A program made the position numbers and the translations under genes. A stretch of DNA of 17,257 nt from a virus (lineage: Duplodnaviria > Heunggongvirae > Uroviricota > Caudoviricetes): IMG/VR virus record IMGVR_UViG_2778261676_000002. One strand, given 5' to 3'. Below the pieces are notes generated by a model. It saw nothing but the letters and a program-made list of their open reading frames with translations, made no database searches and had not been told where the DNA came from. This document shows positions 1,985 through 12,677 of the stretch, piece after piece; the first letter of the stretch is position 1; the number at the start of each line of letters is the position of its first letter.

Positions 1985-3008
<1,024 letters not shown>

Positions 3009-3012
<4 letters not shown>

Positions 3013-3320
3013 AGATATTTATGATGAGGACGCTCGTGCTTATTGGCAGGATTTTCAATCTTAAAGGAGTACTGATGCTGCAGATAAGACTCAACTTTTT
3101 CTGACAATTTTTCTGCTACTTCCAGGAAGACTTGCCGGACGCTCCTTCTGGCTGCTGCCTCATAAAACTCCAGCGCAGCTCCTTCAACACGGTCCATGGC
3201 GACATCCAGGTCAAAAATTTCACCGTCAAAGCGTTCTTTGTCCTGTAAGGCTACAGTTACCGTAACTTTATTCTCAAAATTACGGACTCCTTTCACAACC
3301 AGTTCATAGTCTTGAGTCAT
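3009..3320 (-). CDS. ydfR: YdfR (DUF1327), 103 aa, between holin and endolysin
   Basis: ORF MTQDYELVVKGVRNFENKV...; SD GAGGAG 9 nt upstream; recalled as K-12 YdfR. Confidence 0.8.
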
Positions 3321-3324
3321 TGGA

Positions 3325-3540
3325 TTACTCTCCTCTCGCAGCCTTACGCCTGTCTTCTTTAATCTTGAAATAAAGATTTGTCAGATACGTCAGCAGGCCA
3401 AAAACCAGGCTACCCAGCACACCGATTGCAGCCCACTGTGACGGAGTTACTTTATCGAGTAACTGCAATGCCCAGAAACCAGCATTACCCGCCGATGTGC
3501 CATAGGCAACACCTGTTGTTAACTTATCCATTGATTTCAT
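3325..3540 (-). CDS. essQ: Phage-21-type class II holin (pinholin) with dual-start motif, 71 aa
   Basis: [28 protein letters not shown]...[13 protein letters not shown]; two in-frame starts (M1, M4); two TM segments; close to the phage 21 S protein as I recall it. The ORF track extends it to 3615, which I reject. Confidence 0.85.
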
Positions 3541-3759
3541 ATCCTCACCCCGATGTACACGGATGGTGCAATATGTTTGAAAAGATCGGAGTCTACGGGG
3601 TAGTTTTGACAGCACACGTTGTTCTCAACGGCGCTAAAAAAACATACACATTAAAAATGTGGGTAATTATTTTGAAAGAAAGTCATATATAAAATAATAA
3701 TACGAGAAATGTTTTCATATTTAGTGTACTGTATACGGCCATTTATACAGGAAAAGCCT

Positions 3760-4809: not shown

Positions 4810-5022
4810 TTGTCCCGTAAAATGACAGGAATTGTCAAAACCTTTGACGGCAAAAGCGGCAAGGGTCTTATCACCCCATCCGATGGTCGTATCGATGTCC
4901 AGCTTCATGTTTCAGCGCTCAATCTCCGCGATGCAGAAGAAATTACCACCGGATTACGCGTGGAATTTTGCCGGATAAATGGTCTGCGTGGCCCTTCAGC
5001 TGCCAATGTTTACCTTTCATGA
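4810..5022 (+). CDS. cspF: Cold-shock-domain protein CspF, 70 aa (TTG start; alternative ATG at 4822)
   Basis: [37 protein letters not shown]...; AAGGA 7 nt upstream of TTG at 4810-4812; divergent from cspB. Confidence 0.85.
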
Positions 5023-7974: not shown

Positions 7975-8005
7975 AAATAAAAACAAAAACCCGCCGAAGC
8001 GGGTT
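7975..8005 (-). terminator. Intrinsic terminator downstream of hokD (end of relB-relE-hokD operon)
   Basis: Stem AACCCGC (7988-7994) / GCGGGTT (7999-8005), loop CGAA; followed on the minus strand by UUUGUUUUUAUUUU. Confidence 0.55.
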
Positions 8006-8073
8006 AAGTGCGGGTGCGTTGAGGATGCCTGCCACATCAGAGGTGGCGAGGGATTTCTCCCCCGCCGGGTCTC

Positions 8074-8229
8074 TTACTCCTCAGGTTCGTAAGCTGTGAA
8101 GACAGCGACCTCCGTCTGGCCGGTTCGGATTCGTACCTCGCAGAGGTCTTTCCTCGTTACCAGTGCCGTCACTATGACGGTTAAACAGATGACGATCAGG
8201 GCGATTAACATCGCCTTTTGCTGCTTCAT
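8074..8229 (-). CDS. hokD: Hok-family small membrane toxin HokD (RelF), 51 aa
   Basis: Hand-translated: MKQQKAMLIALIVICLTVIVTALVTRKDLCEVRIRTGQTEVAVFTAYEPEE; below the ORF-track cutoff; 71 nt downstream of relE. Confidence 0.85.
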   Translation of the reverse strand: MKQQKAMLIALIVICLTVIVTALVTRKDLCEVRIRTGQTEVAVFTAYEPEE

Positions 8230-8300
8230 AGCCTGCTTCTCCTGTCAACGCAAAGCAGAAGTGTCACCTTCGGTGCGAAACAGAGATGTCATGCTTTGGT

Positions 8301-8588
8301 TCAGAGAATGCGTTTGACCGCCTCGCTATATACTTCCGAGCGTTCTCTTTTCCCAACAGAAATCACGAAAACGACAACTTTCTCGTCTATAACCTGGTAT
8401 ACAAGGCGATAGCCTGAAGACCGGAGCTTAATCTTGTAACAATCAGGCATACCACGGAGCTTGTTTGCTTCAATCCGGGGTGACTCAAGTACTTCAACCA
8501 GCTTCTTTTTCAACTGTTCACGTACCGTCGAGCCCAGCTTTCGCCATTCCTTTAGTGCCCGCTCGTCAAAATCCAGAAAATACGCCAT
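8301..8588 (-). CDS. relE: RelE mRNA-interferase toxin, 95 aa
   Basis: MAYFLDFDERALKEWRKLGSTVREQLKKKL...; start overlaps relB stop. Confidence 0.9.
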   Translation of the reverse strand: MAYFLDFDERALKEWRKLGSTVREQLKKKLVEVLESPRIEANKLRGMPDCYKIKLRSSGYRLVYQVIDEKVVVFVISVGKRERSEVYSEAVKRIL

Positions 8589-8827
8589 CAGAGTTCATCC
8601 AGCGTCACACGTACTGGCTTAGGATTACGAAGCCGTTCTTTCACTATCTCCACAAGTTCAGCATCTTCATCACTCAGGAGTGTCTGTTTGAACGGCAAGC
8701 GTTCATTGTCAGCGATATACTCGAGCATGAGACGAAGCGCTTCAGAAGGAGTTACACCCATTTTTTCAAGCGCGGCGTAAGAACGCGCTTTAAGTTCATC
8801 GTCAATACGCAGGTTAATGCTACCCAT
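8588..8827 (-). CDS. relB: RelB antitoxin, 79 aa
   Basis: MGSINLRIDDELKARSYAALEKMGVTPSEALRLML...; SD GAGGTG upstream. Confidence 0.9.
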   Translation of the reverse strand: MGSINLRIDDELKARSYAALEKMGVTPSEALRLMLEYIADNERLPFKQTLLSDEDAELVEIVKERLRNPKPVRVTLDEL

Positions 8828-8838
8828 GTCTTACACCT

Positions 8839-8864
8839 CTTGTAATTACAAATGTCATTACAAG
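8839..8864 (-). promoter_or_regulatory. relO operator / relBE promoter region
   Basis: Minus-strand CTTGTAATGACATTTGTAATTACAAG: near-palindromic TTGTAAT/ATTACAA repeats 12 nt upstream of the relB ATG, matching the RelB2E-binding operator as I recall it. Confidence 0.6.
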
Positions 8865-9157
8865 TATCGCACTACAACATGCTTAGGGCAAGTCACGAAG
8901 GAAGTCAGAAAGTAGTCGTAAGAACGGTGATCACTGTCCGCTTTGTGCCAGGAGCAGCCATTGCTAAGTCCATCCTGTATTGTGCAGGTCAGCTCGTTTT
9001 TAAAGAGTCCGGCCATCATCTTACTGGTACAGACACCATATACTTTGTGACGGTCAGGCTACATATGCACAACTCAACTTATTCATCTATTTTTTGCTTT
9101 AGCATGTCAGTGTTGCTTTCTCGTCGGCGGGTGAGCGGTGACCTGACCTGTCGATAA
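8852..9157 (+). CDS. ydfV: YdfV-like ORF, 101 aa; doubtful as a protein-coding gene
   Basis: Length and position match the K-12 annotation ydfV, but the ORF starts inside relO and the translation is Cys/Ser/Val-rich with no clear SD. Confidence 0.3.
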   Translation: MSLQVSHYNMLRASHEGSQKVVVRTVITVRFVPGAAIAKSILYCAGQLVFKESGHHLTGTDTIYFVTVRLHMHNSTYSSIFCFSMSVLLSRRRVSGDLTCR

Positions 9158-9309
9158 AGGAACGTAACACGTTTTATGCAACACCCGCATGCGGCAGAAA
9201 ATTATTGCCGAACGTTTACCCCTGTCAACAAGCTTTACTTTCTGAGGCGCGCCAGCCCGCGAGGAAAACAATCTGAACATCAAACAATTAATGACACAAG
9301 AAATACGAT

Positions 9310-9336
9310 TAAAGATTTTTTTGTGCATGCCGATAG
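9310..9336 (+). promoter_or_regulatory. Sigma-28 (FliA) class-3 flagellar promoter of flxA
   Basis: TAAAGATT (9310-9317) -11 nt- GCCGATAG (9329-9336), close to the consensus TAAAGTTT-N11-GCCGATAA; 24 nt upstream of the flxA ATG. Confidence 0.6.
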
Positions 9337-9359
9337 TGCTTTTTTAAAAGGAGAAATCT

Positions 9360-9692
9360 ATGTCTGTCACAATTCAGGGAAATACCTCAACCGTTATTTC
9401 AAACAACTCCGCCCCGGAAGGAACATCAGAAATAGCCAAAATCACAAGACAAATTCAGGTGCTGACTGAAAAGCTTGGGAAAATCTCATCGGAAGAGGGG
9501 ATGACGACACAGCAGAAAAAAGAAATGGCTGCATTGGTACAGAAGCAAATTGAAAGCCTCTGGGCTCAACTGGAGCAGTTGTTAAGGCAGCAGGCAGAGA
9601 AAAAGAATGAAGACGCGACAGTTCAGCCTGATAAAAAAGAAGAGAAAAAAGACGATACAAATACCGCTGGCACCATTGATATTTACGTCTAA
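9360..9692 (+). CDS. flxA: FlxA, FliA-regulated protein, 110 aa
   Basis: MSVTIQGNTSTVISNNSAPEGTSEIAKITRQIQVLTEKLGK...; AAGGAG 7 nt upstream. Confidence 0.9.
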   Translation: MSVTIQGNTSTVISNNSAPEGTSEIAKITRQIQVLTEKLGKISSEEGMTTQQKKEMAALVQKQIESLWAQLEQLLRQQAEKKNEDATVQPDKKEEKKDDTNTAGTIDIYV

Positions 9693-9706
9693 GTGACAGC
9701 CGTATT

Positions 9707-9730
9707 GTGGCCCTCATCGGGCCACTTTTC
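9707..9730 (+). terminator. Intrinsic terminator of flxA
   Basis: Stem GTGGCCC (9707-9713) / GGGCCAC (9719-9725), loop TCATC, then TTTTC. Confidence 0.6.
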
Positions 9731-9779
9731 GCCATCAGCCTTTTCTTTAAAGACATATTATCTTTGTATCATTTCTGAT

Positions 9780-11628
9780 AGTTAACATTACAAGATATAA
9801 GTAATGGACGCACTCCCAATTAGTCTATTTAAATCGCCACGAGTTTAACTGACAACCCATGATCAATTATGAATTGCAACTATTTCTGTAGTCACTTTTG
9901 TGGGGACAGTCCACAAAACTGCCAACTTCCGCTTCTTGCTCTTAGCGGACATTAGCATAGGCTATTTACCATAACGCCTCATTACGCGCACCGCCCAGAC
10001 TGACTCAGCGCGTTTCTGGCATATCCCCGGTAAAACAAGTAACAAACCACCCGAAAATGAACACCAGAAACGCGACTTAAGAATCTACCCTATGAATGGA
10101 TATGCACTCAACCGAATCGATCTTGGTTTCAATCTTTTTTATCGGGATCAGGCTTCTTTTTAGGTAACTTCGGGGGCTTAACTTGCTGATGACTTTGCGT
10201 TCGGCGCGTAAGCCAGGGATGGTCAGCTTTAGGTTTAACATAGTATTTTGAGCGTAAATCAATACGGGCATTATCCACTCGTTCATGGACACTCTTTTCA
10301 TCATCCAGTGGTATAGGCTCCGGGCCATCAACATACTTTTCCCAGCCCAGCGCTTTCCCGTCATACAGAACGTTAATTTCACCGTCAAAGTTCTCGCATA
10401 CAGTAACAACCGAATGCCTAAGTCGATATCCCCGGCCCTCACTGCGTACCTGAAACGCACTGCTTTTGTACTGGAAAGTGAGATTTTTAGACAGAACGCG
10501 CTTCGCCTGTAGGCTGAAGATATAACCCAGTTCCTCTTCAGAATGGTGCACATCAAGATGAGCATTATCAGTAGTACGAGGCGACGTAGCGAACCGGTTG
10601 TTATAGGCTTCAATAAAGGTCGGCAACCATGCATTTGCTGTTTCAATATCACTGATATTCTGAAGCCGCATTTCTTTGACCAGCCTGTCCTGTAGTGTCT
10701 GATTGGCGCGCTCTACCCGCCCTTTTGCCTGCGGGCTGTTGGCATGGATTGGCTCGATGCCCAGTGTCTTTATCGCACGAGTGAACTGGGTCAGCTCACC
10801 TTCCCGCTCTGGGCTATTTACCCTGAATATACTGTGTCTATCAGAGTAGAGAGCGAGCGGTACGCCATGATCATTAAGGTAACCCCGGAGGGTTTCCATG
10901 TAAGCCCGGGTTGTTTCAGCAGGCACAAAACGCAACGCCATCAACGCACTGGTGGCATCATCAATGAAAACGATCAGTGTACATCTGGGGCCTCGATTTT
11001 CAAACCAGTCATGAGGTGAGCCATCAATCTGGATCAGTTCACCGTAAGATGGTCGTCGCATGCGGCGTTGATATATACGGGCAATTTTACGACGGCGTTC
11101 ACGCCATAACCCCTCTTCTATCATCCACTTTCTGAGAGTTTCAACGGATAAAGATAAACCGTGTATCTCGCGCAATTTTTCGCACGCAAACGTAGGTCCA
11201 AAATCAGCGTAACGGCCTTTGAGGAGTGAAATTACTGTTGCTCTGAATTCAGTAGAAAAGGAATTATTAGGACGCTTTCCACGTCGGTGGGAAACCAGAC
11301 CAGAAGGCCCTTCATTTCTATACCGTTGCACCAGACGTTTAACCTGCCGAATAGAAATGCCAATGCGTGCCGCAGCTTGTTCCTGAATAATCTGAAGTCG
11401 GTGGAGTTCCTTATGACTCATCGTAACAGTCTCTTTGATCATGAAAAATCCCCCAGAGAATTGTCTGGGGACATTTTAGAATGGTTCAAAGGGGACATTA
11501 CAGCTTGGTGTTAACAATAGCCTGCTTCTCCGTGCCTTTCGGCACGTAAGAGGCTAACCTACATGTGTCTAGCATGAAATTGGCCTCAGATTAATGTTAA
11601 GCGTCTTGCAGGACGCGTAATGTTAACT
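9780..11628 (-). mobile_element. Insertion-sequence-like element carrying a DDE transposase; boundaries tentative
   Basis: Transposase CDS 10129-11442; a perfect 12-bp inverted repeat AGTTAACATTAC (9780-9791) / GTAATGTTAACT (11617-11628) brackets it, but it contains a GTTAAC palindrome, does not extend, and has no flanking direct repeats. Confidence 0.3.
10129..11442 (-). CDS. DDE transposase (rve/integrase-core fold), 437 aa; ISNCY/IS481-like by appearance
   Basis: N-terminal HTH-like region then DDE triad context ...LIQIDGSPHDW..., ...LALYSDRHSIF..., ...AKGRVERANQTL...; family assignment from memory only; alternative start at 11419-11421. Confidence 0.8.
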   Translation of the reverse strand: MIKETVTMSHKELHRLQIIQEQAAARIGISIRQVKRLVQRYRNEGPSGLVSHRRGKRPNNSFSTEFRATVISLLKGRYADFGPTFACEKLREIHGLSLSVETLRKWMIEEGLWRERRRKIARIYQRRMRRPSYGELIQIDGSPHDWFENRGPRCTLIVFIDDATSALMALRFVPAETTRAYMETLRGYLNDHGVPLALYSDRHSIFRVNSPEREGELTQFTRAIKTLGIEPIHANSPQAKGRVERANQTLQDRLVKEMRLQNISDIETANAWLPTFIEAYNNRFATSPRTTDNAHLDVHHSEEELGYIFSLQAKRVLSKNLTFQYKSSAFQVRSEGRGYRLRHSVVTVCENFDGEINVLYDGKALGWEKYVDGPEPIPLDDEKSVHERVDNARIDLRSKYYVKPKADHPWLTRRTQSHQQVKPPKLPKKKPDPDKKD

Positions 11629-11776
11629 GGGGCTTTTCTCTATCTGCCGTTGGTGTCCATGCCCGAGGCAGATAGCCTCAAGCACCCGCAGTCATTCTAC
11701 TTAACTAAGATTTCCCCGCAAACCGTTTTTGTCCAGCACAGTAAATATCCAACTAAACCAATGGAGTTCGCTGTAT

Positions 11777-11956
11777 TTACCGCCAGTATTCAATGCACAT
11801 GACCGCCATGAACACCCCTAAAAAAAGGGCATTTATATATCCAAATATTAATATCAAAACATCAACTTTTTCCATATACCTTGCTGTGAAGATGATGGGC
11901 ATACATGATGCGAACAACCAGAACGCAACAAACAAAAACTGCAATGCGTTTTTCAT
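11777..11956 (-). CDS. Small two-TM membrane protein, 59 aa, AT-rich gene of unknown function
   Basis: MKNALQFLFVAFWLFASCMPIIFTARYMEKVDVLILIFGYINALFLGVFMAVMCIEYWR; AGGAGG 4 nt upstream of the ATG at 11954-11956; the ORF-track start at 11995 is rejected. Confidence 0.5.
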   Translation of the reverse strand: MKNALQFLFVAFWLFASCMPIIFTARYMEKVDVLILIFGYINALFLGVFMAVMCIEYWR

Positions 11957-12210
11957 TATTCCTCCTACAATCAATGTGCAATTACATTTAAACACACCTC
12001 AATTTGGCCGGACATATAAATATCTAAACCAGAAAAAATCACTTACATAGCGTTACAAACTCTTTAGTCTAAAGGTTCATCGTAAAACATTCCCCATACT
12101 TATCAGTCCGTTCCGCGCCAGGTAGCTCATTGCCTTATCTGGCAACCTGTAATCAGGTTTCCGCTTTTTCAGTTGGCTGGTCGTTTAACCGACATAGTTA
12201 ATCCATTAAT

Positions 12211-12498
12211 CTAGTTGCCGGATGTTGGTGGATTTTCGCGTTTTAGTTGTTCATAAAAGTGCACAGCTTTAACCAGTTCTTCTGATGTAACTGGGACTGG
12301 TGAGGCAGTGAATAAGGCCTGAATTTGATAGTTCGGCCTGTCGTTACAATCCTCTTTTTTCGGTACATATTTCCAGTCACCAGACCACTACTTCCCCTGA
12401 AAGTCCGTAACGCCTTTTTTCACGTAGCGATATCGCCATGCCACTGGTTTTGCTTGCCCCGCCGTTTCATGCCCTTCCTGATAATTAATCTCGCTCAT
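12211..12498 (-). pseudogene. 95-codon ORF interrupted by one in-frame amber (TAG) codon at 12388-12390; function unknown
   Basis: MSEINYQEGHETAGQAKPVAWRYRYVKKGVTDFQGK-[TAG]-WSGDWKYVPKKEDCNDRPNYQIQALFTASPVPVTSEELVKAVHFYEQLKRENPPTSGN; protein-like composition on both sides of the stop; GGGG about 8 nt upstream of the ATG. Confidence 0.4.
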
Positions 12499-12677
12499 TC
12501 ATCGCCCCACTCATCACAATATGCTTCGACCGGAGTTTTTCCCGCTTCATAGTCATCACGCTAGGATTCGACATCAGCAGCACTTCCACCGCGTATCCGG
12601 CGTTAATTGTTAACTGGTTAACGTCACCTGGAGGCACCAGGCACTGCATCACAAAATTCATTGTTGAGGACGCGATA

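Follow-up and report, generated by a model that had tools for sequence, protein, structure and literature searches.

The locus described here lies in a stretch of 17,257 nucleotides of tailed-phage DNA (IMG/VR record IMGVR_UViG_2778261676_000002), which we call the window. It represents a cryptic lambdoid prophage of the Qin type from an E. coli other than K-12. Our subject is orf59, a reading frame for a small two-helix membrane protein situated between a decayed gene of the nin region and the leader of a hok/sok locus. The features of the window and of the paralogous locus discussed below are collected in Table 1.

Table 1. Features of the orf59 region, its prophage setting and the paralogous locus (window positions unless a locus is named)
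Feature	Position	Strand	Basis or remark
Lysis genes	about 1985-3615		left end of plus-strand map
EssQ-like holin of the window	within 3325-3615	minus	
ydfT (Q-type antiterminator), ydfU, then rem	between lysis genes and hokD		
hokD (relF) toxin ORF	8229..8074	minus	translation; joined to leader in IS-free loci
Transposed block: relE, relB, ydfV, flxA, ISEsa1-type transposase	8243..11516	minus	3,274 bp; outside orf59 cassette
relE and relB	8301-8827	minus	
ydfV and flxA	9360-9692		
ISNCY/IS1202-family (ISEsa1-like) transposase, 437 aa	11442..10129	minus	NCBIfam NF033594, 456 bits
Orphaned hok/sok leader	11691..11517	minus	Rfam RF01794; plasmid hok similarity
Inferred hok promoter	11721-11694	minus	-35 TTGCGG 11721-11716, 16-nt spacer, -10 TAGAAT 11699-11694
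AT-rich cassette, 342 bp, 35.7% GC	11735..12076	minus	GC values; indel relative to related phages
orf59, 59-aa two-helix membrane protein, CDS with stop	11956..11777	minus	translation, paralogue, AF2
Shine-Dalgarno AGGAGG	11966-11961	minus	4 nt 5' of orf59 ATG
Antisense 85-aa ORF	11793..12050	plus	phage-record annotation; judged spurious
Decayed nin-region gene	12077..12498	minus	PGAP pseudogene at equivalent L001 position
dicB, ydfD, 3'-5' exonuclease gene, xis, int	right of orf59 region		
Paralogue of orf59	L093 5001-5180		also in L094-L098 and L128-L142
hok pseudogene fragment beside paralogue	L093 5236-5301		

Compared with fuller relatives such as locus L001, the window lacks about 4.7 kb of immunity and replication genes, with the junction at 12593-12595. 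The missing interval corresponds to L001 9097-13780 and holds a DUF7167 pseudogene, a methyltransferase, a DUF977 gene, an O-like gene, a ydaT-like gene, dicC, dicA and ydfA-C; from comparison with K-12, and not from a direct check, we take the dicF region to fall within it as well. At the junction the decayed nin-region gene is fused to the sequence just upstream of dicB, and the pR-type promoter from which orf59 would normally be expressed has thus been lost. In K-12 MG1655 the whole of window 10314-12592 is missing, so that orf59 is absent from the reference strain.

The cassette, made up of a leader of about 120 nt, orf59 and a trailer of about 40 nt, has a GC content of 35.7% against 46-49% in its flanks and 44.3% in the window; the 120-nt leader reaches 32.5%. 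It starts directly after the TGA (12079-12077) of the decayed nin-region gene and ends at the putative hok promoter. PGAP annotates the L001 counterpart of the decayed gene as 'hypothetical protein, frameshifted; internal stop', and the 3' end of this gene shows homology to the terminal part of ORF23 in phage pPE4. In that phage (vB_Apl-pPE4, L092) about 74 unrelated nucleotides stand between the same flanks in place of the 342-bp cassette, and in Stx phages and plasmids hok is present without it.

The hok promoter region (11721-11694) is conserved in pPE4 and in 640R1. We recognised the promoter by reading the sequence; our consensus scan did not report it, which shows that the scan is insensitive. 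The same scan found no sigma-70-like promoter or terminator on the minus strand of the cassette and no promoter-like site on its antisense strand. Reading the cassette by eye gave weak -35/-10 candidates only, and we claim no promoter from them. Downstream of the promoter the leader matches the Rfam model RF01794 'sok' (104 bits, E=1e-23, 11516-11687, minus), and over 11517-11691 it is 85-89% identical to plasmid hok loci. An Rfam scan inside the cassette gave nothing and the predicted fold of its transcript was no better than that of shuffled sequences (z=-1.25), and we rejected the idea of the cassette as an RNA-structure element.

Three smaller features of the neighbourhood may be recorded here. 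A truncated mok' ORF (11575..11498, minus; MLDTCRLASYVPKGTEKQAIVNTKL) runs from the hok leader into the end of the transposon, and PGAP names its plasmid equivalent 'DUF5431 family protein' (L004 4339-4404). Downstream of hokD there is a sub-threshold Rfam match to isrK (7984-8065, minus; 25 bits against a gathering threshold of 50, E=0.02). At the 5' edge of the cassette, at about 12058-12072 on the minus strand, lies the inverted repeat CTTTAG-A-CTAAAG, which has the counterpart CTTCAG-T-CTGAAG beside the paralogue (L093 about 4878-4895), the two differing by one compensatory pair change. With just one covarying pair, the repeat may form a small hairpin or serve as a boundary element.

The orf59 product and its paralogue

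The frame of orf59 opens with an ATG at 11956-11954, closes with a stop at 11779-11777 and translates as MKNALQFLFVAFWLFASCMPIIFTARYMEKVDVLILIFGYINALFLGVFMAVMCIEYWR. The combination AGGAGG-N4-ATG occurs once in the whole window, both strands counted, where shuffles would lead us to expect 0.08 occurrences. T makes up 52% of codon position 2, against 38% and 23%, and this bias is specific to the frame; the remaining frames across the region are crowded with stops. Length by itself is not significant, since 8% of shuffles of a 401-nt region give an ATG-started frame of at least 59 codons. What places orf59 beyond chance is its Shine-Dalgarno sequence, the T bias at the second codon position and, most of all, the existence of a diverged homologue.

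This homologue was found by a phmmer search of 1.84 billion cluster representatives, which returned one other family (P0041/P0046, E=1.2e-8). The protein, which we call the paralogue, also has 59 residues and is 41% identical to orf59 over residues 1-59 without a gap; tblastn gives 5e-16, and the similarity has z=17 over shuffles that preserve the hydrophobic layout. Some GenBank records carry a 72-residue model of orf59 extended to a GTG, which we reject: the L093 sequence shows a stop in frame, 6 codons 5' of the ATG of the paralogue, and the conserved product is therefore the 59-residue form.

The surroundings of the paralogue are a prophage remnant of 2 kb that occupies the Rac attachment site and reads ttcA, integrase fragment, paralogue, hok pseudogene fragment, ABC-3 fragments and uspF. 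The hok fragment begins 55 nt 3' of the paralogue, covers codons 24-45 and has an internal stop. The paralogue is the sole intact ORF with coding evidence in the remnant, the other ORFs of at least 35 residues having none. Its cassette and that of orf59 share DNA homology over about 12087-11745. Both lineages thus place a member of the family upstream of hok, and this adjacency is therefore ancestral to both.

At 95% identity or more orf59 is present in 1568 of 5426 complete E. coli genomes (29%). The paralogue is found in 1045 of the same 5426 (19%), including the type strain ATCC 11775, EC958, NC101 and NRG 857C, and at least one genome holds both subfamilies; ATCC 8739 also figures among the matches of the family. 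Among the sequences searched the family is confined to E. coli and Shigella. A word-index search with orf59 returned only proteins of these bacteria, nearly identical where they align and in many cases truncated or frameshifted. No third subfamily came out of a profile word-index search, a degenerate-pattern scan of metagenomes or a scan of GTDB species representatives, in which Shigella and E. coli alone gave matches. The last of these includes a genome labelled 'E. coli' in which an orf59 allele carries three 1-nt deletions and a 3-nt insertion (L088 3001-3180, CP178302.1). We rejected it as a 53%-identity homologue, as it is the same orf59 allele with indels that lie partly in T runs and are probably assembly errors; the locus was therefore excluded as evidence.

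Three phage records carry orf59 (PhiR42_1, 640R1 and 813R8), and tblastn against 50,697 phage records gave nothing but noise beyond these three near-identical phages. Neither Pfam, PHROGs, NCBIfam nor PADLOC scans matched orf59, and PADLOC did not match the paralogue. A profile search of PDB sequences found no relative, Foldseek of the predicted hairpin against BFVD gave only matches with E>1, which are uninformative for a hairpin of 59 residues, and literature searches with orf59 peptide strings found no match. PGAP/RefSeq annotation beneath the orf59 and paralogue matches was 'none' in every sampled row; GenBank submissions name orf59 'hypothetical protein' or 'membrane protein'.

A Kyte-Doolittle scan shows two hydrophobic segments at about residues 4-24 and 33-55, linked by TARYMEKVD. 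AlphaFold2, run on a 9-sequence alignment, predicts a hairpin with helices at 2-26 and 28-58 (mean pLDDT 74). The hairpin would insert into the inner membrane, with both termini probably in the cytoplasm and the TARYMEKVD loop probably in the periplasm. We infer this topology from the positive-inside rule; the paralogue carries +2 at its N-terminus and -2 in its loop. Between the subfamilies 21 columns are invariant, including W13, S17, C18, P20, T24, F38, G39, N42, A43, L44, E56, W58 and R59, and G47 is kept except in two minor cluster variants. The invariant small and polar helix residues (S17, C18, P20 and G39-x2-N42-A43), with the mostly kept G47, point to possible oligomerisation. The earlier note, made from the letters of this stretch, had put forward the 59-residue frame with its strong Shine-Dalgarno sequence, the two-helix membrane architecture around this loop and the AT-rich island, and all three stand.

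It is tempting to ask whether such a protein perturbs the membrane, as a toxin or as an accessory of lysis or killing, made from the early-right transcript on induction and depolarising or permeabilising the inner membrane, alone or with Hok. It is small, has two hydrophobic helices, and combines a G39-x3-A43-x3-G47 spacing with a buried N42, as is typical of oligomerising helices; in both subfamilies hok follows directly on the same strand, and no terminator intervenes. GhoT, a type V toxin of E. coli with 57 residues and two transmembrane segments, has a similar length and the same kind of helical-hairpin architecture. But an unregulated toxin is hard to square with a frame that stays intact in cryptic prophages and in a remnant whose hok has decayed, and neither an antisense RNA nor an antitoxin was detected, given the blank Rfam scan and the fold z of -1.25 in the cassette, though an uncatalogued sRNA may be encoded there. 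GhoT was not among the phmmer matches of orf59, and no GhoS-like antitoxin gene adjoins it. We consider a membrane-perturbing product unlikely.

Two further kinds of small membrane protein deserve comparison. Class II holins or pinholins (S21/EssQ-like) are likewise small with two transmembrane helices, but orf59 lies outside the lysis cassette and ends merely in ...IEYWR, without a charged cytoplasmic C-terminal tail. The prophage, moreover, already has its own holin. Against this EssQ-like holin hhalign gave orf59 a probability of 0.2%, and there was no Pfam or PHROG match. With the Hok/Gef proteins orf59 shares a small size, a hydrophobic inner-membrane character, the same prophage module and an adjacency kept in both subfamilies. 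It differs from them in having two helices rather than one and in lacking a periplasmic tail with a Cys, a mok/sok-type leader and, as far as Rfam can tell, an antisense RNA; hhalign against HokD gave a probability of 1.3%, and there was no Pfam match of the PF01848 type.

Coding conservation and polymorphism

One of the more telling results is the way in which the two subfamilies differ. Their DNA is 59% identical, with 58, 72 and 48% identity at codon positions 1, 2 and 3, and the two frames share their start and stop positions, but several gaps are needed to align the homologous flanks. From pN 0.34 and pS 0.72 we obtain a dN/dS of about 0.19, with dS near saturation. As just two subfamilies were found, the evolutionary test amounts to one deep comparison at near-saturated dS. 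Among the fetched loci that cover the whole ORF, to which the counts were confined, the frame is intact in 106 of 107 for orf59 and in all 21 for the paralogue. We conclude that orf59 is very probably a genuine protein-coding gene.

It could be argued that orf59 has stayed open by chance within a non-coding spacer that is rich in AT and skewed towards T, for example a part of the hok leader or promoter region, and that its helices simply reflect T-richness. None of the sampled records has a PGAP call for it, frames of this length turn up in the 8% of shuffles mentioned above, the family is an orphan within one species complex, no promoter emerged from the consensus scan and all ten of its polymorphisms change an amino acid. 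A chance frame would hardly remain free of gaps and stops across 41% amino-acid and 59% nucleotide identity, with the same start and stop, while its flanks become gapped. The identity order of codon positions (2 > 1 > 3) and the strong, unique and correctly spaced Shine-Dalgarno sequence also speak against it, the other five frames are filled with stops or broken in natural variants, and the hok loci of plasmids and Stx phages function without any such spacer. We therefore give the chance frame a small probability.

The polymorphism within the subfamilies merits closer attention. There are 10 nonsynonymous and 0 synonymous changes (7:0 and 3:0), which, given a dN/dS of about 0.19 between the subfamilies, is very unlikely under continued strong purifying selection. 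The pattern fits relaxation in cryptic prophages or diversifying selection, and not ongoing purifying selection; the within-population dN/dS rests on 10 variable sites, too few to separate neutrality from diversifying selection. In subfamily A, 3 of the 7 changes (I37M, Y40H and Y57C) give the residue present in subfamily B; this suggests that the tolerated states are limited in number.

A different candidate for the real gene of the island is the antisense ORF of 85 residues. It is the longest ORF of the island and the choice of the gene callers in PhiR42_1, 640R1 and 813R8, where it is annotated in place of orf59 (for instance at L089 5907-6158 and L090 4907-5158) under the name 'hypothetical protein' and once as 'hornerin'. 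This candidate is very improbable: it has premature stops in many natural haplotypes, no Shine-Dalgarno sequence and no counterpart opposite the paralogue, and its low-complexity, N/K/T-rich product is typical for the antisense strand of a membrane-protein gene.

The relBE transposon and the hok start codon

The earlier note had placed orf59 next to a transposase, a neighbourhood that proves incidental. The transposase belongs to a block whose extent can be read from related loci: in 43 of 82 that lack it, window 11517 runs straight to 8243 (hokD), which marks the 3,274 bp in between as inserted. On either side of the block stands the same 15-bp direct repeat, ATAGCCTGCTTCTCC (8228-8242 and 11517-11531), and the terminal inverted repeats of the block are imperfect (24 of 40 positions matching). 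The insertion splits the hok start codon between AT and G and has duplicated the 15-mer that runs from the Shine-Dalgarno sequence to the AT. This target duplication remakes a Shine-Dalgarno sequence and an ATG for hokD, hence hokD (relF) as the third gene of relBEF.

The same block is found at the same position of another hok, the R1-like hok of Enterobacter IncF plasmids (L004), with the target site duplication (TSD) ATGGCCTTCTTCTCC. In a Salmonella IncHI2 plasmid (L091) an IS with 89% identity adjoins a third hok leader, again at this point. These cases suggest that the ISEsa1-type unit has a target specificity for the Shine-Dalgarno-ATG region of hok. The left boundaries at 9924 or 9934 of a 1.6-kb IS in plasmids apparently derive from other IS insertions; plasmid copies of the transposase are annotated 'IS1202-like element ISEsa1 family transposase'. 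In the literature we searched, no description of the 15-bp duplication or of a hok-start target specificity was found. The integration of relBE into hokD was already noted by Ramisetty and Santhosh in 2016, according to PMC6379469, which cites them. Harmer and Hall describe ISEsa1 as 1609 bp long with no detectable TSD (PMC10132070).

The history of the block also bears on the annotation of K-12. There 'ydfW' corresponds to the 3'-terminal 49 codons of the ISEsa1-type transposase ORF (window 10129-10278), with the same stop codon. Homology between K-12 and the window stops at 10313, so ydfW is the transposase relic of a K-12 deletion that also removed orf59. The gene formerly named 'intK' in K-12 is, we presume, likewise a transposase relic.

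That orf59 should be a passenger or accessory of this insertion sequence is extremely improbable: although the transposase, on the same strand, starts 335 bp downstream of it, it stands 245 bp outside the block, beyond the direct and inverted repeats that bound it and separated from it by the hok leader, it persists unchanged in the 43 of 82 loci without the block, and it is missing from plasmid copies of the block. The nearby transposase is thus a red herring for orf59. The earlier note would have given up its reading if both expression in ribosome-profiling or proteomic data and conserved homologues were wanting, or on identification as a known IS passenger gene; the 41%-identical paralogue is a conserved homologue, and the persistence in IS-free loci tells against a passenger.

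A prophage cassette upstream of hok and its possible role

Taken as a whole, we think it likely that orf59 is a real small-protein gene, encoding an inner-membrane hairpin, on an AT-rich cassette upstream of hok and independent of the transposon. In Qin-type phages and prophages of E. coli and Shigella the cassette fills the interval between the last gene of the nin region and the hok/sok promoter, with orf59 on the strand of the rightward early operon (dicC to O and on to Q). A sister cassette occupies the equivalent place upstream of the hok fragment in the Rac-site remnant, and the relBE-carrying transposon would have landed later in the hok start codon. From its strand and position among the delayed-early nin genes, with no terminator before hok, orf59 would most simply be transcribed from the early-right operon on induction. 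It may also have a promoter of its own within the 120-nt leader with its 32.5% GC.

The earlier note had further called the gene a moron. Morons, in the concept of Hendrix and Juhala, are known from lambdoid phages in such examples as bor and lom of lambda and gp15 of HK97. The cassette resembles them as an extra segment of deviant, AT-rich composition between genes that are adjacent in pPE4, with a single small gene of accessory type, and to this extent the name can be kept. It differs from them in having no recognisable promoter or terminator of its own, as far as an insensitive scan can tell, in its early-operon orientation and in its place in the nin region.

What such a protein might do can at present be addressed from its sequence and setting. 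The earlier note had named superinfection-exclusion factors, holin-like toxins and immunity proteins as candidates; orf59 resembles neither holins nor Hok nor any defence model in sequence. Small membrane proteins of superinfection exclusion include Imm of T4 and the Sie factors of prophages. Like these, orf59 is prophage-borne, small, probably located in the inner membrane, dispensable to the phage and variably present among related phages; unlike known defence proteins it matches no PHROG or PADLOC model. Our tentative guess, more apt to fail than to hold, is that it serves as an accessory inner-membrane protein to the benefit of the lysogen, in which it would block or abort infection by incoming phages much as superinfection-exclusion proteins do. 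Such a role would explain both the retention of orf59 in decayed prophages and its amino-acid-changing polymorphism. Next to exclusion the likeliest role would be the membrane-perturbing one discussed above, itself unlikely, and a modulation of Hok by orf59 would be improbable. What probability remains goes to a gene that is by now functionless and decaying.

A bolder view is that the family may have been domesticated by its host, either as a functional partner of the adjacent hok or as a stand-alone and new exclusion determinant. As a partner, orf59 might gate or neutralise Hok, or the two might form a membrane module for abortive infection or prophage maintenance. Domestication would explain why the paralogue is the sole intact ORF in the Rac-site remnant, and also the exclusively amino-acid-changing polymorphism. 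We regard it as rather improbable.

As a species-restricted family of small proteins, so far uncharacterised, orf59 belongs to a familiar kind and will not surprise a specialist. Three annotations can nevertheless be put right, namely the missing orf59, the spurious antisense 'hornerin' ORF and the over-long model of 72 residues. The family provides a concrete case of the hidden small proteome of prophages, in 29% (orf59) and 19% (paralogue) of complete E. coli genomes. That two diverged lineages keep it immediately 5' of hok offers a testable link to the biology of membrane toxins and phage exclusion.
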